DNA of 60,700 nt, counting the filler, from Dirinaria sp. TL-2023a (lineage: Eukaryota), in the NCBI GenBank assembly GCA_051941275.1. It is 11 parts of 11 records of this genome, joined end to end, with 100 filler letters (N's around TTAATTAATTAA, not from the genome) between each part and the next. Parts side by side here need not be neighbours in the genome. Positions count along the whole stretch, not along the records: positions 16,624 to 22,054 come from JAVEBF010001659.1; 10 more parts are not named here. One strand, 5' to 3'. A program made the position numbers and the translations under genes. Of the stretch, positions 5,446 through 27,582 are shown piece by piece. Numbering within the stretch: position 1 is the stretch's first letter; the number at the start of each line of letters is the position of its first letter. Under the pieces are notes generated by a model that had not been told where the DNA came from, searched no databases, and worked only from the letters and a program-made list of their open reading frames with translations.

Positions 5446-5545
5446 NNNNNNNNNNNNNNNNNNNNNNNNNNNNNNNNNNNNNNNNNNNNTTAATTAATTA
5501 ANNNNNNNNNNNNNNNNNNNNNNNNNNNNNNNNNNNNNNNNNNNN
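5446..5545. other. Artificial contig spacer
   Basis: N44-TTAATTAATTAA-N44, with stops in all six frames. Confidence 0.99.
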
Positions 5546-10986: not shown

Positions 10987-11086
10987 NNNNNNNNNNNNNN
11001 NNNNNNNNNNNNNNNNNNNNNNNNNNNNNNTTAATTAATTAANNNNNNNNNNNNNNNNNNNNNNNNNNNNNNNNNNNNNNNNNNNN
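10987..11086. other. Artificial contig spacer
   Basis: N44-TTAATTAATTAA-N44. Confidence 0.99.
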
Positions 11087-16523: not shown

Positions 16524-16623
16524 NNNNNNNNNNNNNNNNNNNNNNNNNNNNNNNNNNNNNNNNNNNNTTAATTAATTAANNNNNNNNNNNNNNNNNNNNN
16601 NNNNNNNNNNNNNNNNNNNNNNN
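16524..16623. other. Artificial contig spacer
   Basis: N44-TTAATTAATTAA-N44. Confidence 0.99.
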
Positions 16624-18195
16624 GAGCTCCCCCCCCCCCCCCCCCCAATCCTCCCATTTTCATGACTTCAACCGGCGCTAACAGCACTAGGGACTAGGTT
16701 TTTACCTCGAAAACCTACCCGAAGCATATTTACAACCCGGCAGAGCACCTTGTGAAGCCCGAAAGGGGTTTAGCTTACTTCTCCCTTTTCTCTCCTAATG
16801 TCGATACATCGCGTGAGGAAACCCTTGGATTGCGCGCTCTCGAGAGAGAGAGAGGCCGCCAACACGGGAAGGGGGAAAAAGCAAAAAAAAAAAACAACAA
16901 CAAAAACAAAAACAAAACACAATGAACTCCAATTGCTCGGTACATAAGTACCCGGAAAAAAAAAAACAATTGTGAACCATCATAGATTAAGGTAAAGTGT
17001 ATAGTCATTCCTACAAAGTCCCCCCTTTTTTTTCCCAGCATCCACCATCCATCCCTTCTCTCATCCTCAGATATATATATATCTCTCTCCATTTTCCACA
17101 TTCCAGATCTTAATCTCCAAACCTTTCTCGCTCTATTTGTAATATGTTTATCTCCCATCTAGTGACTTCAACCTCGTTTTTGAAAGTGCCATAACAATTA
17201 CCTTCCTTTTTTTTTTTTTTGGAGCAACTTAGTATACTAAGATGAAGAGAAACAAAAGCGTGTATTTTGCATCACTGAACAGATGAGAATGTGATCGGTA
17301 TTATTTCTTGACGTAGGTTGGACCTGATCGGTATTTATGATGGGATTCGAGAGGAAATGGGAAGGAAAGAGCAAAATGAGAGAACATGGTTCGGAAGGAA
17401 TATTTTTGATGGTGTGTGATGGTAAATAAAAGTCCAAGAATGGCTTACACGCTGTCAATTAGAGATAAGGTGTAGGATAGTTCCTATCAGGTTTTCTCTC
17501 GTCCGGAATAATGACGGAGAAGGGAGGAATATACCTTGCTCGTGGGAATTGTGATGATGGTATATCTAATCGAAAAATCATAAAGCCCCCGGCTGATGTA
17601 GATTCTCCCCCATATTCGCCAATCATATCCGGCAAAACTCATAGATCCTTTTTTTCCCTGATATTTTCCTCGCGAAGGAATACTTAGCTAGTGGATTTTT
17701 TCTTTCTTTTTTTTTTTTTTTTTTTTTTTTTTCATAAGATCGCTGAAGAAGCGTGCTGTTTCCTTTTTTTCCCCCTGTTTTTATTGTGGTAGTTAGTTGC
17801 CTCGACAATGGACCGGCTTGCGTATGTATGTATGTATGTGCTATACGGTTTAGCTGCTCAAATTCGGGCGCTGGTTTATTATTGCGTGGGTACGATAGGT
17901 GCTCGAATTGTTTCGTTATTGGATTGGATCAGGAGTATGTATTCTTCTTATCTACCGAAAATATGAGACGAGTACCTGGTTTTGTAAGCTGGTAATTCCG
18001 CTGGTAAGATCCAGAGTAGCTAGGTAGCTCGTTGGATATGTACACTGATCCAAGAGTTTTTATTTATGTATGTATTTGTTTGTTTCTTTTTTTTTTCTTT
18101 TCTTTTTTTTTCTTGGGTTTTCGGCTTGGGTTAACGCCAATTTTAGATGCCGAGCTGAGAGTGGGAAGCCCTATTCTGACCTCTATTTACATTCT

Positions 18196-19026
18196 TCATA
18201 GCCCGCCATTCGGTTTCGAGAAATCAAACACCTTGCCATCCTCACTCTGATAAACCTCACCCCCCGGCGTCTCAACGGTATAATTCGTCCCGTTGAAAGT
18301 AATCAAATCGGGCAAAACCTGTGCACCTTTCCCAGGAGGCTGCGCCCACAGGTATCCCTTCTCGCCTTTAATGATCCCTCTCTTCTGGACCCAACTACTC
18401 CTCTTCATAACCCCGACTCCAGCAGCCAGCATATGCTCCTGGATCCAATGGCGTTTCTTTGAGCCTGGTTTCAGGCCCAGAGCCGCGTTCGCAGCTTCCT
18501 GCAATAGATTCCGCGTAGCCGAATTCGAAACCCATTTCCCGCCGCCAGTGACGGTGCCCAGAATCCCTTCTGCCTCCAACATTGCGGACTGGCCTGGGTC
18601 CTGGGGCAGCCGGGTGGGCAGTCTGAGGTAGCTGCCCCCCGTGATGATGTTCGGACTGTTCCCGTTGTCGGGAAATTTCCAATACCCGGGGCCTGGACGC
18701 GTCGCGATGGGGACCCCACTGCAGCCTCCGACGTCCTCCTGCGGTATCCATGTCGAGGCGATGTCCATCGGTTGCAGATGCGAGAATTCGGCAACCCGGT
18801 AGTTCTGGAACGGGTACGGTGCTGCCATGGGTCCTTGCGGTGGCATTGGGCGTGATTGGCAGCACCGTCCGGGAGGTATGTCACGGCAGACTTGGGCCTG
18901 CATTTGCACCATGGCTGGGAACGGGTGGTTGTCGCTGAAGCGTAGAGTGATGTCCACTGCGAGAAGGGGAGAGATGAGGAGGAAGAGGGAGGGAAGGAGT
19001 GTCGTATAGAAGAGCGACAGACGCAT
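18196..19026 (-). CDS. Secreted protein of unknown function, CxxIPPGxCC family member A (276 aa, intronless)
   Basis: Signal peptide MRLSLFYTTLLPSLFLLISPLLA-VDI; four Cys; three KR sites; NGT sequon; colinear similarity to 25944-26648. Confidence 0.88.
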   Translation of the reverse strand: MRLSLFYTTLLPSLFLLISPLLAVDITLRFSDNHPFPAMVQMQAQVCRDIPPGRCCQSRPMPPQGPMAAPYPFQNYRVAEFSHLQPMDIASTWIPQEDVGGCSGVPIATRPGPGYWKFPDNGNSPNIITGGSYLRLPTRLPQDPGQSAMLEAEGILGTVTGGGKWVSNSATRNLLQEAANAALGLKPGSKKRHWIQEHMLAAGVGVMKRSSWVQKRGIIKGEKGYLWAQPPGKGAQVLPDLITFNGTNYTVETPGGEVYQSEDGKVFDFSKPNGGL

Positions 19027-20750
19027 GGTGTTTCTCACGGAAAGTTGTGAGGGTTAGTAATAGTCGATGGTGCAGACTATCGCATTGTAGCAAGAGTGTA
19101 GATAAAAGACTGTAAGTTTCTGCACTGCAAATTGAGAGAGCGGTTATAAAAAAGTAGAGAGAATTCGATTACTGAATACCCCCAGTCCCAGAGCACTTAT
19201 CATCGACTTCGAAGAATAGCCATCATATTCTCATACCGTGCTCGGCGCAAATGCGCTTGCGCAGGAACCACCCACGATTCGCGCAGGCGAGCCTTTCTCG
19301 AAAGGTCTTCCGATCTCCACATGTGGAGCCTGATGCTCCAAGTATGGAGCATGCTGAGAGCCTGAGACACCTTGGGTTTCGTGCGCATCAAGCCGTGGTG
19401 GCGAAGATTCAGACGCGACAAGCGCAGGAGCTAATTCGAATGGATAAACCACAGTAACAGCAGCAGTGACGGAAAGATGGCAGTCCGCTTAAAGGACGAT
19501 TAGCGATCAATGCCCGAGAGATGGCAACCTTTCATTTTGATAAACTGTGCCGGCATACCTGAGGTCTCTGAAATGCGAGTAGCTCAATAGTAGAAAAAAG
19601 TCCCGGATTTTGTACTAGTTCAAAGTACTAGTCAGGCTTGTCCGCTAGAGACATCGCTAAAGTATTAGACTGACACTCCAAAACTGTTCCAGCTTGTATT
19701 ATTATTGAATCCTGGAAGAGTGAGACTTTCTGTCAGCAGAAGGAAAGGAGCATTCAGTAGGAAATGATCCGGAATGAAAGGAAATTTTTGGTGATCTCTT
19801 TCGAGCTCTCGGTGCCTTGAGCCAACGAAGCGTTGCTAAAATTCATTAGTAATTTTATGGGAGTCGTCACTTGCAAGAGAATTCGCGGTAGTCTGCGGCT
19901 TCGTAAAATTTTGCTGGACCAGCATTGCCGTGGCAGTATCTGGCGCAAGTACACAAGCAGAAAAAGAAGAGCAAGCCTGAGAAGTGACGAATTGAGATGG
20001 AAGCTAACATAATACCATGCTAACGGAGCACGAACTCCGGACAAGCCAAATGCAATGTCAATCGAGAACTCTATTGGATGAATATTACTTGTCAATGTTG
20101 AAGCAAGCAGATTAGGTAGGTCAATCGCAGCTGATAACGCCTGTACGATTGTTTGGGCTTTGTTTCAACTTTGCTCAATGAACAAATTTTCAAAGCCAAA
20201 CATGCAGCGACAGTAGCAGATAGCCGGCATTGCGGTCCTGAATCGACAGATTCATAAAATAGGCCTAAAATCCACGTAGTAGGAGGTGTAGAACCTGTAC
20301 CCATTTAATTTCCATGGCTGGCGAAGGGATGAAGAATGCCCCGGAGTCGCCGTCAGCGTTATTACGCTTTGCCGATGAAGAACGATTAAATCTTCGGGGT
20401 GAGACTTCTGTAGTATAGCTGCAACTTAATTGTTGCCGAAGCCTAACTTCCTATGTGGTACTGAAGAATAGTGGAAAGTGGGAGGACAATATCGTCGTGT
20501 AAATATTAAAGTGTCCTGGCCGGAAGATCTTTTGGACAAGTTCAAGGCGATGAATATTGAACCTCGGCATCTTGCAAGGCTACGCAAAAGGCAGTCGTTG
20601 AAGCCGTCAATCTGCATTATTCGTAATGTATTCCTCGAGCGCTACAAATTGGTCAGTTGTTCTTGTTTTCCTTTCTTCTTCTCCTTCTTCTCCTCCTCCT
20701 CCTTCTTCTTCTCTCATGCTGTGTCTTTTGCCTTCTACTTTCCACCCATC

Positions 20751-22054
20751 ATGCCTGGCCCAACATTAATACGCCAACCCCCGGCGGACGCCTCCAAATC
20801 GCCTATCGAGAATGTGCTGGATTTGATCCCTCTCTCAGACATTGGGCCCGCACGTTTCACCTTAGCCTGCGTCCAGACCCTTACTGACAATTATTCAGGA
20901 CATCTTCACGAATACTCGGTACCGCCAATCCCAACCCATTCATCCCTATCAGCCCAAGTCTGCCCCGCTAATACTCAGCAAGGGAACTCTGGCACCCCCC
21001 AGGTGCACGGGGGATTTTCGGCGGCGCCGTCATAGCCCAATGTCTCTCCGCCGCGCAACGCACCATCCCCTCCCCTTCGTTCCTGATCCATAGCATGCAC
21101 TGCTACTTCGTGCTTGCGGGTGATGCTTCGATCCCGATTCTATACCACGTTGAGCGCGTGCGTGACGGGAGGAGCTTTATCACACGAACGGTCCAAGCAA
21201 GACAGAGGGGGAAATGCATATTCACCACGACATGCAGTTTCATGCGGGAAGGGAGCGGGGGCGCAAAGACGGTGGATCATGAATGGGGCATGCCGGAGGG
21301 TATGAGGGAGGGACTGGAGGGCATGGAGGAACCGGACGGCAAAGACGAGGGAGAGGACGGAGAGGGGAATGGAGTGCAGAGTGAAGGACCGTTTATAATC
21401 CTGAGATTGGGCGTCGCGAATAGTATGACTTCCCCCTTTTACTCAAGTTCCGCATATTCTTTCTCTCTCTTTTTCAGTAATAATAACTTGTGAGGGGCGC
21501 CCAAAAGGTGACTCTCCATATCCGCACATCAAACGCCCTCAATCCTGGCACCGAGCCCGCGGCAAAATCACAGCGTCGGCAGGACCGCAGGCCCACCTCT
21601 CCGCTCTGGCATACATGTCCGACAGCTACTTCATCGGCACCGTGAGCCGAGTGCACAATCTATGGCGCTTCGGTCGGCCGCCCCCTGCAGACCCAAAGCC
21701 ATCTTCTCTTCAAACCCTGCAACAACACAATCTCGACGCCATCGAAAAAGAACTGAAACCTAAACCTCTTCCTCCTCCTCCTCCTCCTCCTTCTCCCTCG
21801 TCTTCGCCCACCAACCGACTCGCAGCTCTCGAAGCGGCCGAGAACAACGCAAATCCCAACTCGTCCGAGACCGACGAGCCCCGCAAGATCGGAATGATGC
21901 TCTCGCTCGACCACACCATCTACTTCCACCAGCCGAGGGAGGTGAAAGCGGACGAATGGCTGTGCAGCGAGATGGAGAGCCCGTGGTCCGGGGAAGGGCG
22001 AGGGCTGGTGTTGCAGCGCATCTGGAATAAGGAGGGCAGGTTGTTGGCTACTTG
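20751..22054 (+). CDS. TES1: Acyl-CoA thioesterase II (TesB/PTE1 family), 3'-truncated (exons 20751-20849, 20899-20918, 20983-21422, 21508->22054)
   Basis: DIFTNTRELWHPPGARGIFGGAVIAQ, HSMHCYFVLAGD, RVRDGRSFITRTVQARQ, AYMSDSYFIG and SLDHTIYFH. Confidence 0.92.
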
Positions 22055-22154
22055 NNNNNNNNNNNNNNNNNNNNNNNNNNNNNNNNNNNNNNNNNNNNTT
22101 AATTAATTAANNNNNNNNNNNNNNNNNNNNNNNNNNNNNNNNNNNNNNNNNNNN
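22055..22154. other. Artificial contig spacer
   Basis: N44-TTAATTAATTAA-N44. Confidence 0.99.
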
Positions 22155-22403
22155 GCGGTGGCAGGATTGGAGGGAGGGGGAGAGGAGAGCTTAAGGCGGT
22201 CATGTGCAGGGAGGACCTTGATTGAAGAACGGTAGAGGGCTGGGAGTAATCATGATCCCCCATTTTCTATTAACAAGTCGTCGTTGCTACTTTTGTTTTG
22301 TGCATGGTCGAAAATGCGCTACATTTTTGGAGAAGGTGCCGAGCACAGTCCGTACATTTTGAAGGTACTTTTTACCAGATGCAATCAAAGAACACTATAA
22401 CCA

Positions 22404-23831
22404 CTAAAAGGAAACGTACCCAAGCCGCAACCCCTCTGTAAATGCTTCTTCAGTCATGCACGAATATGGCCTCTCATCCTTCCCATAAAGCCCTGTCTGG
22501 CCATAAGGACCTTTGCCAGAGACAGAGCTGTCAGCAGGCCAGGTATAGTCTGATAGTGCTTGCCCTGCTTCGATATTGCCATGGACCAATGACTGCTTAG
22601 GTTCAAAAATCCAATAATCGATAAAAAGCTGGATGTCGAGGTCAACATTCTCTTTCTCACTGCGCGCGGCCATCAGTGAGCGCGCAAGATCGAGGATGCG
22701 CCAAAACCGGTGTTGAGCCTCCACCTGGCCCTGACGGTGATTACACAGGCGTTCGGCACGGATCTGAACCTCGCCGCTCCAATTGACGGAGGCGTCCTCG
22801 AAGAGATGCTCACACACTGAGGGCAAGGAGACGGCCAAACTCTGCAGTCGTGGACACTGAAGTAGTTTTGTGCACAAATGACCGCACTTTTGGGTATCGG
22901 ACGTCTTTGGATGCACAAAGCCATCTCCAGCCAGAGGCGAAAATTCCAGAACCTGTAAGCTGCATCGGGAGGCCTCTACTAAAGCCATCACTCCAGCAAT
23001 GGTAATCGTACAAGTGGCTGTGACGTGGACCTCACGTAAATTCTTGGCGGTCCTTGCTATAGCGAAAAGGTCATCATCCGTGATGGGCTTGAAATTGGTG
23101 TTTCCAAAGATCTTCAATCGCTCGAGGTATCTGAAGTCCACCACCGTCGCATCCAAAGGGTGGTAGTCCACCTGATTCCGTAAGTCATAGATCTTCTTTT
23201 CTCCAAGATTTACGGCTAAGAACTCTAAAGACAGAGGCTTGCAGGCTAAAGGTGCTCTGCTGAGGAATCGTGACCAGTCCTCTTTCGACCCATATCTCAA
23301 AGTCGTCCACGGTAAGGTCAGGTGATCTACGTGAGAGCAATGGTTGAGTATATTGAGTATTAAGGCGTTGGCCTCTTGAGTGTAGTATCCATTGAACCAG
23401 AGCCTCTGGACAGACGCAGCCAACGCGTGATGGCTTGCAAATAGATCCGCTGTTTTCCTCAGCGAGAGATATGGGTCCCGATATACGGCGATGCTTGATG
23501 GTTCTGCCGTGAGGCGGTCGAGACTCCGTGATTGAAGCCATCTTTCGCTGCCCCTCCAACGTGAAATGTAGAGACTTCTGAAGGCGTATTGGATGGCCCA
23601 TTCATGCCATCGTTGGTTCACTTTTCTCAACCCTTCAATGGCTTGCCACGCTAGCACGTCTGGAGTCGTCTGTCCTCTGACTACACGCTGCAGCCGTGTA
23701 GACAGCCCCAGCTCTGCGGCATGGCTAAGACCATATGTGAATGAGGGAAGCTGGTGGAGGTTATCTCGAGCTACTTCCTCTAGAATTATGCATAAGATTT
23801 CGAATGGGAGGTCTTCAATTGAAGTAGGCAT
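22404..23831 (-). CDS. F-box-like protein with LRR-like repeats (475 aa, intronless)
   Basis: N-terminal IEDLPFEILCIILEEV followed by a split F-box remnant (LRKVNQRWHEWA); LxxL repeats (LERLKIFG, LREVHVT, LQVLEFS, LQSLAVSLP). Confidence 0.75.
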   Translation of the reverse strand: MPTSIEDLPFEILCIILEEVARDNLHQLPSFTYGLSHAAELGLSTRLQRVVRGQTTPDVLAWQAIEGLRKVNQRWHEWAIQYAFRSLYISRWRGSERWLQSRSLDRLTAEPSSIAVYRDPYLSLRKTADLFASHHALAASVQRLWFNGYYTQEANALILNILNHCSHVDHLTLPWTTLRYGSKEDWSRFLSRAPLACKPLSLEFLAVNLGEKKIYDLRNQVDYHPLDATVVDFRYLERLKIFGNTNFKPITDDDLFAIARTAKNLREVHVTATCTITIAGVMALVEASRCSLQVLEFSPLAGDGFVHPKTSDTQKCGHLCTKLLQCPRLQSLAVSLPSVCEHLFEDASVNWSGEVQIRAERLCNHRQGQVEAQHRFWRILDLARSLMAARSEKENVDLDIQLFIDYWIFEPKQSLVHGNIEAGQALSDYTWPADSSVSGKGPYGQTGLYGKDERPYSCMTEEAFTEGLRLGYVSF

Positions 23832-24713
23832 GGTCACTGAATGTCAGCTTCGCAAGAAGTAAAATGGGGGAAGAGGCTATTATGAAGATGGCCGGTTTTG
23901 TACCCTTCTACAGTCATATGGACTGGACATCTGCCTTTTATAACCAAACTGGACTCGCAATAAGCACGCCATCTCTGGGAAGGTTTTGTCCATGGGGTCA
24001 TTCGGTCATTCGCCATGCAGATAGCAGCGACCAGGAAGACTCAAAGAGGACCTCGAATCCTCTTGTTGGAGCATCAAACATGAACATTGGGTAATAGTGG
24101 ATGCGTTGATTGGACGAGGACATTGAAGATTGAGTAATATTTCGTAATTTTGCCATTGCCAAGTGCCATTTTCCTTGGCTTCACCTGATGGGCCGAGTTT
24201 GTCGGATGGGGAGCACGGACTTTTTCATTGCTAATAATAACATCGGTTCCATCGGTTCAGACAATGTATCATCATTAAAAGAGATCTATCTCTTCATTGT
24301 ACAGAGAATGACGGGAATACACTGTGAATAGAGGGAAAATCTTCGCTTTAAGTTCCGGAACCCGATATCCGAGAGGATTTAGAAACCGAGGGTTTCGGTT
24401 AGGGTTGCACCATCAGGATTTTAGATGTCTCAGTGAAGACCATCTGACCATCATCGAGGCCTGCATTTATTGGCGATTTGCCGGTTTATGCGAGGTAACT
24501 TCTTGACCTATTTAGCAGTTCCCTACACCCAGACTTCCCGGCTCGTCACTATTGCACCATGTGGGACATTAAGAATTTAAGATACATGCATACCTTGCTT
24601 ACGTACACATACTAGGTTCATCAGGTTCATCAGGCCTTAGTAATAGGGTATGATTATCTTGGCATACACAGACTCAGCGAGTCAGCTTCGAACATGGTTA
24701 TTTATCTAAGGTA

Positions 24714-25189
24714 GGCTCCCACTACTGCCGCCACACCACCCTACTCTACTGGCACACCACCCTCTCGCTCTAACTACTACTCATTATAGCGTGATAATGC
24801 ATCCGACGTCTTTGATGCCTCGAGTTGAAGATCCATCGGTCTCCCTTACTCTGACAGAGTGCGAAGTTTCAAGCAACGATGATTTCACGAGATGACGATG
24901 AACTGATTCACCACGAACGTGCCATCGTCAAATAGGCAAACCGTTAAAGCAAGATTGAAGGTGTTAGGGGAAAAATTTTTGGAGAGAGGCATTGATAGAT
25001 TTCACCACGAACGTGTCATCGTCAAATAGAAAATGGTTAGAGTAGACTGAGGTTGTTAGGGGGAAAAAAAAACTTTTGAGAGAGAGAGGTATTGATAGAT
25101 GAAAAACAATAAGTGAAGAGGGCGGCGTGGGCGGCAAAAGTGAAGGTGGTGTGTCAGCAAAGTAGGGTGGTGTGGCGATAGTGGTTGCC
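24714..25189 (+). mobile_element. MITE / non-autonomous TIR DNA transposon, copy 1 (476 bp)
   Basis: Imperfect TIRs of about 47 bp (GGCTCCCACTACTGCCGCCACACCACCCTACTCTACTGGCACACCACC ... GGTGGTGTGTCAGCAAAGTAGGGTGGTGTGGCGATAGTGGTTGCC); no ORF; end-to-end homology with 34847-35181 in the opposite orientation. Confidence 0.88.
24907..25100 (+). repeat. Diverged tandem duplication (94 bp + 100 bp) inside MITE copy 1
   Basis: TTCACCACGAACGTG(C/T)CATCGTCAAATAG...ATTGATAGAT at 24907-25000 and 25001-25100; present once in copy 2. Confidence 0.92.
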
Positions 25190-25943
25190 TTTATCTACAT
25201 GTAATTTGGGTAAACGCTCGAGCTGCTCTTGACTAGTACTAAGGTAAGTACCTATTTTACATATCCTACCTTAGGGTATCACATTAACTTAGGTACACAG
25301 TAGTACCTTAATCCGGTTCAGCGTAGATCGAATAACAATAATGGTGAGAATACGTTCCAAGCGGCCTTGGGAAGTGTATCTCTTCTTTTAACTTGAGCTA
25401 TCAGATACACAATGTGTACGGTTGACGCTCTTATTCTAGCCTTCTCCCTCACACCTTCCAGCATTTCCTTTTCCCAACATTCAACTCCATTGATCGTGCT
25501 GGTCCGGACCCTTGCGCTTTATTGCTATTGACCAAATTCTTGCGCTTCGTTGCTGTACCATAGAAACAATTCTATGCACCAGTCTCTGTCTGTAGTCGCT
25601 CGCCATTGAGCTTCTTCTCATATTCGAGTGCCAGTGTTACCTCTTGAAGGTCTTTATACAACGCACGGTTGGTGGCGGAAGAGCAGTAAGCGACAATCTT
25701 GCTTCTCTCTCTCTGAGGTCCATTAGCGCTTCATCCGCTCCGGTCGAGCGCTTTGAAGGGCCAGGGATATGTCAAGCCTAGATTTCACCCCATCAAATGT
25801 TTTGCAAGAAGATTCTCATAGGAAGAGTCTCTCATGGCAAGACGCTGTCCATTTCTTCGAAGCCCTGATAAAGGGACGGGGAAGATCTTTAGATAACCAA
25901 GACTTGCTCCGTGAGTAAGAGTCCCGTCATCTTATTCGTTAGA

Positions 25944-26648
25944 ATGCCTGCAGGTACATTCGTATGTCAAAGCGCCGCCTCGCTCTGTATCCTGTTCTTT
26001 CTAGTCACTTCCACACTTCAAGTGGACATTAGAATGGCCATGAGTCCGTCGTACGCGATCACGTGCAGTGGCATCCCTCCTGGGTACTGTTGTGCCGTAC
26101 CTGTTGGCTTGCAACATACTTTTCCTACCATTTTCCCTTTCGCCGTGAGCATCGGTCCGCTCCATGTACGAGATCTTGGTGTTGTGTTTGAGGCCCGTGG
26201 CAACCTCGGGGGCTGTGCCGCTATCCCACCAGCAAAAAGAGTGGCCGGACCTGGTACCTTTATCGTTCGCAATGCTCCAGTGTTCCCACGGAGCGAGCCT
26301 TTCCAATTCACAGGCGCAAGCTATGTGACCTTACCCAATTCGATTCCTGCAGACATTACTTCCTCCGAAGTACTGGCCGTTCAGGGGCTATTGGGCCTCG
26401 CGACGGCAAGAGCAACCTGGTCCGCTCCCAATACGAAGTGGAGAAAGTTCCGGGGACTTAGGCATAAAGGCCGGAGAGATATCATAAGCGGTCAGAAGGG
26501 CAATGCCTACGTTGGCCCTCCCCCACAAAGCAGATATCCCGACATAATCACTATCAACGGTACAGATTACCATTCAACGAATACTTCGGCGCTCAATTAC
26601 CAAACCGCTGATGGACAGCCATTGGACACCGCAGACCTAGGTTTCTGA
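25944..26648 (+). CDS. Secreted protein of unknown function, CxxIPPGxCC family member B (234 aa, intronless)
   Basis: Hydrophobic leader (SLCILFFLVTSTLQ-VDI); CSGIPPGYCC, GGCAAIP, GPG, TGASYVTLP, QGLLG, RR-DIISGQKG, PDIITINGTDY and YQTADG. Confidence 0.85.
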   Translation: MPAGTFVCQSAASLCILFFLVTSTLQVDIRMAMSPSYAITCSGIPPGYCCAVPVGLQHTFPTIFPFAVSIGPLHVRDLGVVFEARGNLGGCAAIPPAKRVAGPGTFIVRNAPVFPRSEPFQFTGASYVTLPNSIPADITSSEVLAVQGLLGLATARATWSAPNTKWRKFRGLRHKGRRDIISGQKGNAYVGPPPQSRYPDIITINGTDYHSTNTSALNYQTADGQPLDTADLGF

Positions 26649-27582
26649 ACGACGTATACTTGCTTTGTACGTGGCGCCCCAGCCTTCAGTGACACCGCCT
26701 TTCTGGATTCCAACGGTAGCCATGGGTATATCGATGATTCCACAGCGGCAATCATATTCTTCAATGTGAATCGTTGCAAAGCGAAAGAAGCTTGCCGACG
26801 CATTGGCAAACCCAAGGATCCTTTTGGCATGCGATAGATCGCCGAGTCAAGGAATGAGCAGCATGTCTGACGCAATTCGTGGATTACCATCTCAAACCCT
26901 TTTGCATGTGTTGCCCGCCAAGACATCAAAGCTTCACAAACCACAAACTTCTTATGAAGAGCAGCGTGAGGAAGTAAGCCGGAGACTTAGAATGGAGTTG
27001 GCCCAGGGATGACTACGCCAGCACCTTAAGTAATAAAAAATTTTAGACTGTACTATCTGTTAGAGGAGCATTACGTGCAATAGACTAGAAGGTTGTATGT
27101 ATAATTAGAGCTTGGCACGAATATCAAAGAACCTAGAAGCAACCCATAATTAAAGTACCCCAAGACAGCACTATCAATATTCGACCTAAGAATCTTCCAC
27201 TTAACAGGTCCAAGTCAGGTCTGAAACTAATGTAATAGATTGAATCCTACGAGATATGTGTGGCACGGGCAAATGAGACGGTCAAGTCGGCCGGACTACC
27301 TTACCTTGACCTGTCCCGCTCCATTTCCATGTCGTATATCCAGCAGGTCGTGAAATACATACCTTACACAATTATCCAAGAATATACCTAGCCTGCACTA
27401 TACGCCCACACGAACCAGCATCGGTAGGTAAAGTAGCATTCAGACCCAGCATAAAATCAGCACAGCAGTTAGATCCTCCCTCATCAACCCTACTCCCTAC
27501 TATCCATCTAGAACAAAATCCTCCCCTCCCCTGCCCTCCAGCGTAGAAGGAAAAGCAATCAACCAGCAGCACCGCCGGCCCC

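Follow-up and report, generated by a model that had tools for sequence, protein, structure and literature searches.

Two genes in a 60,700-base stretch of DNA from Dirinaria sp. TL-2023a (GenBank assembly GCA_051941275.1), referred to in its entirety as the window, are, on the evidence of their sequences, anciently diverged paralogues of an ascomycete nuclear gene family. Gene A occupies 18196–19026 on the minus strand and gene B occupies 25944–26648 on the plus strand. The family is very probably a real family of secreted proteins. We consider the best overall explanation of its members, at about even chances, to be a secreted, kexin-matured extracellular protein that is not an enzyme. A first-pass annotation, made from the sequence of the window alone, had described A and B as members of an old, unrecognised family with a layout that recalls Kex2-processed killer-toxin precursors. 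That interpretation is partly supported: it was right about the family, its age and its layout, and it over-reached on novelty and on the likeness to toxins. A and B are probably a new member pair of an ascomycete secreted family that is already catalogued and functionally uncharacterised.

The relationship between the two proteins is clear from their alignment. BLASTP gave 84.0 bits (E = 5e-24); of the 262 aligned columns, 74 are identical (28%) and 57 contain gaps. A non-significant pairwise match had been set beforehand as one of the outcomes that would refute the proposed relationship, and the relationship stands. The motifs VDI, CxxIPPGxCC, GGC, GPG, TGxSY..LP, EG/QG.LG, W and [KR]R-x-II.G.KG are colinear in A and B, as are PP, PD.IT.NGT.Y and YQ..DG toward the C terminus; every motif listed in the first-pass annotation is present and in order. 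A family hidden Markov model (HMM) was run over all 1275 six-frame open reading frames (ORFs) of at least 30 amino acids in the window. A was recovered at E = 2.5e-70 and B at E = 3.7e-64; the next match had an E value of 0.77, and no member beyond A and B was found among these frames.

Searches outside the window placed the pair in a large family. A word-indexed protein search returned two proteins for A among 1104 candidates and five for B among 423, the B homologues sharing 81–54% identity. An alignment-based search, in which the 8000 best candidates were scored, returned four proteins; the sole named relative is a hypothetical protein from a metagenome-assembled genome of Polycauliona, a lichen fungus. 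When a profile of nine sequences was searched against 1.84 billion cluster representatives, 317 clusters matched at E ≤ 1e-3, 218 at E ≤ 1e-10 and 95 at E ≤ 1e-30, so A and B are far from being the only copies. A family alignment of 89 rows was assembled from A, B, the database protein P0004 and 86 of the 150 listed matches, chosen for near-full coverage of the profile. The other 64 listed matches (fragments or partial matches) and 167 unlisted matches lie outside it. All conservation counts given below refer to these 89 rows unless stated.

Addition of four close relatives of B gave a 93-row alignment for tree building. In the IQ-TREE tree, A falls in an 8-row clade (Shimodaira–Hasegawa-like approximate likelihood-ratio support, 96) within a 12-row clade (97), and B in a 7-row clade (95) within another 12-row clade (99), with the two clades on opposite sides of the midpoint root; this is a quick search, the careful one being unfinished, and 41 of its 90 inner branches are unresolved. 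Because A and B sit in separate supported clades, they are old paralogues, and together with the 317 clusters this bears out the description of the family as old. That the family is also expanded is plausible, since a small family would be unlikely to give two matches among 11 effectively random contigs sorted by length; the reasoning is our own and leaves the size of the genome unspecified.

The family may well have a name already. Neither A nor B matched Pfam-A at E ≤ 1, and none of the 89 rows did so at E ≤ 0.01, in a copy of 24736 models that does not include PF28391. In a feature search of the ESM Atlas, A and B shared their three nearest clusters, all from Ascomycota (80, 119 and 255 members); 74–82% of the members of these carry the Pfam 38.1 domain PF28391, "ARB_05566_N". 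Scores against the three clusters were 0.89, 0.89 and 0.89 for A (178, 175 and 178 of 256 features shared) and 0.89, 0.89 and 0.87 for B (180, 175 and 175 of 256). By the Atlas guide, a score below 0.9 is a lead only, whereas 170 or more shared features are typical of the same family, a level that both proteins exceed against these PF28391-bearing clusters; the likeness is one of language-model features and not of an HMM alignment. The cluster representatives, at 163–210 amino acids, are shorter than A and B (234–276 amino acids) and may be without the C-terminal module. A and B are probably members or close sisters of the PF28391 family. The earlier statement that no domain could be recognised holds for the Pfam-A copy that was run, and the description "unrecognised family" is doubtful. 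PF28391 seems to be uncharacterised, because no mention of ARB_05566 or PF28391 was found in the literature searched. A supplementary text to Burmester et al. 2011 (PMC3091305) does not contain ARB_05566, and a preprint on lichen antimicrobial repertoires (10.64898/2026.09.03.749242) contained no match to the terms looked for.

A has the properties of an intact gene under constraint. Four public sequencing runs contain parts of its stretch; all are labelled lichen metagenome, which is the only habitat information used, and three of them are RNA libraries from one sample. The runs hold 0.05–0.19 of the sampled words, and their source is a relative that is about 4% diverged rather than the same strain. 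Over 17700–19500, with repeats at 17700–17741 and 18055–18120 skipped, we compared the window with two contigs from the RNA libraries, of 1005 nt (covering 18175–19103) and 1139 nt (covering 18175–19278). They differ from the window at 37 and 58 letters, the relative being about 96% identical, and both are colinear with it without a joint. A therefore has no intron, as first proposed. Introducing the 31 differences within the ORF into A left the frame intact, and its translation was identical to database protein P0003, in which 11 of 276 residues are not those of A. The 20 synonymous and 11 non-synonymous differences give a ratio of non-synonymous to synonymous rates (dN/dS) of 0.16, which indicates purifying selection; dN/dS was among the checks that the first-pass annotation had called for. 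The frame of B is open throughout, and the protein is colinear with its homologues over its full length.

A related-locus search from the alignment found two loci, both on syntenic metagenome contigs with decayed copies of the A clade. One (L001:5938–6711) is interrupted by two in-frame stops and, close to its end, by a one-base frameshift. The other (L002:5938–6840) has a 117-bp insert with stops, either an intron or an insertion, and a tyrosine in place of the first cysteine of the invariant CC. These copies hint at birth-and-death turnover.

The proteins are built to a common plan, in which a leader and an N-domain are followed by a basic linker with a conserved dibasic site and then by a C-module. 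This layout had been read from A and B and proved to be family-wide over the 89 rows. Gene A, all on the minus strand, comprises 276 codons and a stop (18196–18198) in one complete ORF without an intron. Its presumed signal peptide, residues 1–23 (18958–19026), is delimited by hydrophobicity and by a modelled helix (residues 4–22) before the first strand. The β-rich N-domain, residues 24–166 (18529–18957), contains the near-invariant cysteines C47 (18886–18888), C55–C56 (18859–18864) and C102 (18721–18723). It is followed by a long, basic linker that is partly helical in the model (residues 167–216; 18379–18528) and has three dibasic sites, KKR at 190–192, KR at 208–209 and KR at 215–216. The last of these, K215–R216 (18379–18384), is the one conserved in the family. 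The Cys-free, β-rich C-module, residues 217–276 (18199–18378), carries an NGT sequon at 18286–18294. Gene B, on the plus strand, has 234 codons plus a stop and encodes 234 amino acids. Its leader (25944–26021) precedes an N-domain (26022–26423) with cysteine codons at 26064–26066, 26088–26093 and 26214–26216; the linker (26424–26477) ends in RR (26472–26477), and the C-module (26478–26645) has its NGT at 26556–26564.

Conservation across the family follows this plan. A 10-residue window with a mean Kyte–Doolittle value of at least 1.8 precedes the conserved [Q/A]-V-D-I in 86 of 89 rows. The four cysteines that had been called conserved are kept in 87, 89, 88 and 89 rows; all lie within the N-domain, and 68 rows have exactly four cysteines after the leader. 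The linker (W165 to R216 of A) varies from 13 to 64 residues, with a median of 23. The C-module has a median length of 58 amino acids, in line with the 56–60 first estimated, and is free of cysteine in 77 rows. At the NGT column, which had been described as a conserved sequon, an NxS/T is kept in 62 rows. Only G, P, C, W, L, S, Y and R occupy the near-invariant columns; no His/Asp/Glu/Ser constellation is conserved among them, and nothing in these columns looks catalytic.

Four database rows (P0145, P0130, P0156 and P0139) end soon after the N-domain and have unrelated tails. Such short members suggest that gene callers have overlooked an intron or a frameshift within the linker of some orthologues.

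The dibasic site keeps a constant position at the start of the C-module while the length and sequence of the linker vary. In 75 rows, [KR]R forms the last two residues of the linker. Within the family [KR]R is 12-fold denser in the linker than elsewhere (0.061 versus 0.005 per residue), with at least one such pair in the linkers of 83 rows and at least two in 29; A has three. Kex2 favours basic as well as aliphatic residues at P4, and this position is K/R in 42 of 89 rows and aliphatic in 26. At P1, 83 rows have R, and at P2, 78 have K/R; P1′ is occupied by D in 41 rows and by G in 24 (D/G in 65 of 89). The Kex2 motif has been described as having an invariant P1 Arg and Lys/Arg at P2 (PMC8528282), and the family site fits it.

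AlphaFold2, run with the family alignments, gave confident models of both proteins (mean predicted local distance difference test score, pLDDT, of 86.5 for A and 87.8 for B; predicted template modelling score, pTM, of 0.83 for each). In both, a leader helix is followed by eight strands, a helix and a hairpin, and then by a low-confidence linker and a β-rich C-module with pLDDT of 90–98. In A, the eight strands fall at residues 24–135, the helix at 144–152 and the hairpin at 155–166; pLDDT is mostly 90–96 in the N-domain and 90–96 over residues 221–270. The linker is the sole low-confidence stretch in either model. By 10-residue blocks, pLDDT drops to 61, 50 and 61 over residues 191–220 of A, and to its lowest value in B, 56, over residues 171–180.

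No close structural relative was found. Foldseek returned nothing from the PDB at E ≤ 1e-3 for either model (E ≥ 0.27), and an exhaustive VIA-align search gave nothing above Z = 5.0, where a Z below 8 may mean merely a common arrangement. The top row for A is MiAMP1 (1c01; Z = 4.9, 74 of 76 residues aligned, root-mean-square deviation (rmsd) 3.2 Å), followed by crystallins at Z = 4.0–4.8; these matches span residues 22–139. SKLP (1f53) scored Z = 3.8 with A. For B, the top row is a βB1-crystallin domain (8h0r_B; Z = 5.0, 80 of 87, rmsd 2.8 Å) and the second is MiAMP1 (Z = 4.6, 73 of 76, rmsd 2.6 Å). The best rows for both models are weak superpositions of the eight-strand core on β/γ-crystallin-type Greek-key domains, a group with MiAMP1, SKLP and microbial crystallins among its members, over 73–80 of 76–87 target residues at rmsd 2.6–3.2 Å and Z = 4.6–5.0. 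Crystallin-type domains make up 17 of the best 50 rows listed for A and 16 of those for B, as classed from entry titles and fold class. Rows for cypovirus polyhedrin (Z = 3.5–4.3, rmsd 4.6–5.8 Å, about 140 residues) were rejected as poor superpositions. The family profile found nothing below E = 0.44 among PDB sequences; the match at that value, PsaE over the C-module, was rejected as chance.

Other properties set the N-domain apart from the crystallins. The sequence [YFW]xxxx[YF]xG is the crystallin signature of each Greek-key motif, and it occurs in only 4 of 89 rows. Comparison of the two halves of the N-domain (residues 24–86 and 87–141) by hhalign with the family alignment detected no internal repeat (probability 0.3%, E = 0.23), a test that very old duplications can escape, and neither half resembled the C-module by hhalign. 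The N-domain is also larger (about 115–140 amino acids) and is accompanied by the extra helix-hairpin and the C-module. From the models, we regard it as possibly a remote double Greek-key sandwich and do not call it a crystallin.

From these observations we propose how the protein would be handled after translation. The leader would direct it to the endoplasmic reticulum and be cleaved off a few residues ahead of the conserved V-D-I. The eight-strand β N-domain would then fold, with its four near-invariant cysteines forming two disulfides, and glycosylation may occur at the NGT sequon of the tail. A kexin (Kex2-type) of the late Golgi would cut after the conserved [KR]R that ends the disordered basic linker, and where extra dibasic sites are present, as in A, it may excise part of the linker. 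We judge cleavage at the conserved site to be somewhat more probable than its absence, because the site lies in the sole low-confidence segment, its position is fixed and extra dibasic sites occur only there. The Cys-free C-module of about 58 amino acids would afterwards be either packed non-covalently on the N-domain, as a nicked two-chain protein, or released. Since all conserved cysteines are in the N-domain, the two products could not be disulfide-linked. The mature protein would work outside the cell, and the absence of a catalytic constellation from the near-invariant columns makes it somewhat more likely than not that it does so by binding rather than by catalysis.

Several known systems resemble parts of this scheme. 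The killer preprotoxins K1 and K28 of S. cerevisiae and KP6 of Ustilago have a leader, a first chain, a basic dibasic spacer and a second chain. The corresponding motifs are all found here (leader in 86 rows, [KR]R where the C-module begins in 75, at least two linker sites in 29), a result that concerns motif presence, the cleavage itself being putative. The chains of K1 and K28 are joined by an inter-chain disulfide, which is impossible in the A/B family where the C-module is Cys-free (77 of 89 rows). The family also differs from killer preprotoxins in being encoded by chromosomal nuclear genes beside housekeeping genes and not by dsRNA viruses, and it has no sequence similarity to any PDB chain (best profile E = 0.44). 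No KP6-like α/β-sandwich is among the matches listed for the A and B models, and the sole toxin-like row called in this comparison, among the matches listed, is the weak one to SKLP. The likeness to killer-toxin precursors that was first suggested therefore holds for the processing logic and layout; it fails for the inter-chain disulfide, and toxin folds reach only Z = 3.8–4.9. The remaining comparisons are by description and not by sequence. KP6 also appears in a preprint on Cladosporium fulvum, which presents the apoplastic proteins CfCE72, Ecp4 and Ecp7 as secreted fungal proteins with a MiAMP1/crystallin-like module; CfCE72 has a putative kexin site between its two modules and so offers a precedent for the arrangement proposed here (10.1101/127746). 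In CfCE72 the crystallin-like module is C-terminal with 6–8 cysteines, whereas the module compared with it in A and B is N-terminal with four. Kex2 maturation is portrayed as widespread among fungal effectors (PMC8528282). The pro-domains of Kex2-processed (K2PP) effectors are short, N-terminal and disordered; the site of A and B, in contrast, lies three quarters of the way along and precedes a folded module.

The conserved basic pair admits a different reading, which we regard as possible and rather doubtful: A and B would be single-chain secreted or wall-associated proteins, each one intact β-sandwich unit, in which the pair stays uncut and serves to anchor the C-module or to bind an anionic ligand (wall polysaccharide, a phospholipid head group or a partner surface). 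The positions that follow the site are no less conserved than it is (P2′ I/V in 66 rows, P3′ R in 45, P4′ S in 58), which fits the start of a strand, and P4 is aliphatic in just 26 rows. Because the Cys-free C-module is modelled with such high pLDDT in the full-length context, at a pTM of 0.83, the models also suggest that it packs on the N-domain as part of one compact body. A complex prediction of residues 24–216 with 217–276 of A scored 0.00 (mark, 0.34); it was made by ESMFold2 without an alignment, the partner fold was uncertain, and it is evidence neither way. P1 and P2 are nevertheless both basic in 75 rows despite lying in the least confidently modelled segment, and the accumulation of extra dibasic sites in the linker only is what is expected for processing sites and not for a single structural arginine. 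We therefore retain the reading of a secreted, kexin-matured protein, and the following points weigh against it. The call of secretion rests on the hydrophobicity of the leader and on the model, and the cleavage site is putative. The role of the conserved RR could be structural or ligand-binding, and the exact [KR]R is missing from 14 of 89 rows. All fold matches, at Z ≤ 5.0, are below the level that would go beyond a common arrangement. The RNA contigs establish presence in the RNA libraries of a relative, where DNA carry-over is possible, and transcription of A is unproven. The derivation of A and B from one organism is the simplest reading, and their common origin is an assumption.

More specific roles are less probable, and an antimicrobial or symbiotic function is speculation. 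In one, which we consider improbable, the N-domain is a distant β/γ-crystallin Greek key of the kind found in MiAMP1, WmKT and SKLP, and the kexin-matured protein inhibits fungi or bacteria. The order of the fold matches and the N-domain of exactly eight strands agree with this, as does the fact that MiAMP1 and the killer-toxin-like crystallins are secreted and disulfide-braced, both of which are predicted for A and B; crystallin/MiAMP1-like secreted proteins have, moreover, been proposed as antimicrobial effectors in C. fulvum (10.1101/127746). The same text gives six cysteines for MiAMP1 against four here, the scores are low throughout, the crystallin signature is rare, neither Pfam Crystall nor any other model matched in the 89 rows, the halves show no internal repeat, and a common fold proves no function. 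A lichen-specific effector that acts on the photobiont is very unlikely. It draws on the lichen metagenome label of all four runs that contain the stretch, on the named homologue from Polycauliona and on work on Xanthoria parietina, where 205 of 608 secreted proteins are without annotation and the unannotated secreted clusters are enriched for thallus-upregulated genes (10.1101/2024.08.16.608140), although no link from that work to the A/B family was established. The decayed copies on two metagenome contigs count against such an effector. The nearest Atlas clusters are broadly Ascomycota, so the wider family is not restricted to lichens, and their name carries the ARB_ tag, which we take to stand for the dermatophyte Arthroderma benhamiae. 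A combination of these ideas, in which the family, kexin-matured and with a disulfide-braced β-sandwich fold that has no clear solved relative, is a two-chain extracellular weapon or signal at the symbiotic interface, antimicrobial or photobiont-directed and present as many lichen-fungal paralogous lineages, has little probability in our estimate. Its active or regulatory part would be the glycosylated C-module, released as a chain of about 58 amino acids.

The window consists of 11 pieces of about 5.4 kb each, steadily shortening (5445, 5441, 5437, 5431, 5428 and so on) and separated by N44-TTAATTAATTAA-N44 spacers at 5446–5545, 10987–11086, 16524–16623, 22055–22154 and six further positions. 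Because the pieces have been joined, the adjacency of features across them carries no meaning. A is on piece 4 (16624–22054) and B on piece 5 (22155–27582), which agrees with their assignment to two independent contigs; they are therefore unlinked, and their closeness in the window gives no grounds for inferring linkage. The closest neighbour of A that could be recognised is an acyl-CoA thioesterase gene at 20972–22054 on the plus strand (PF13622, E = 3.1e-25; PF20789, E = 3.6e-31), which has at least one intron and runs off the end of the contig piece. An ordinary intron-bearing neighbour of this kind indicates that A is a nuclear chromosomal gene. Piece 4 opens with a poly-C run of about 20 bases (16624–16650), and low-complexity A/T-rich repeats at 17623–17808, downstream of A, have frames that read as poly-Lys or poly-Phe. 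On the contig of B, a 479-amino-acid open frame at 22404–23843 on the minus strand had no Pfam match at E ≤ 0.01.

The secreted proteins of lichen mycobionts include hundreds that carry no annotation, and one such family now has a defined architecture, two confident models, a candidate processing site and a signature of purifying selection. What was a "hypothetical protein" becomes a testable maturation model, of which the internal kexin-like site is the most testable feature. If the proposal is not true, A and B are ordinary conserved secreted proteins with a role still to be assigned. If it is true, and kexin cleavage goes together with antimicrobial or partner-directed activity, the family would join the KP4, KP6 and crystallin-like proteins that shape the microbial surroundings of fungi.

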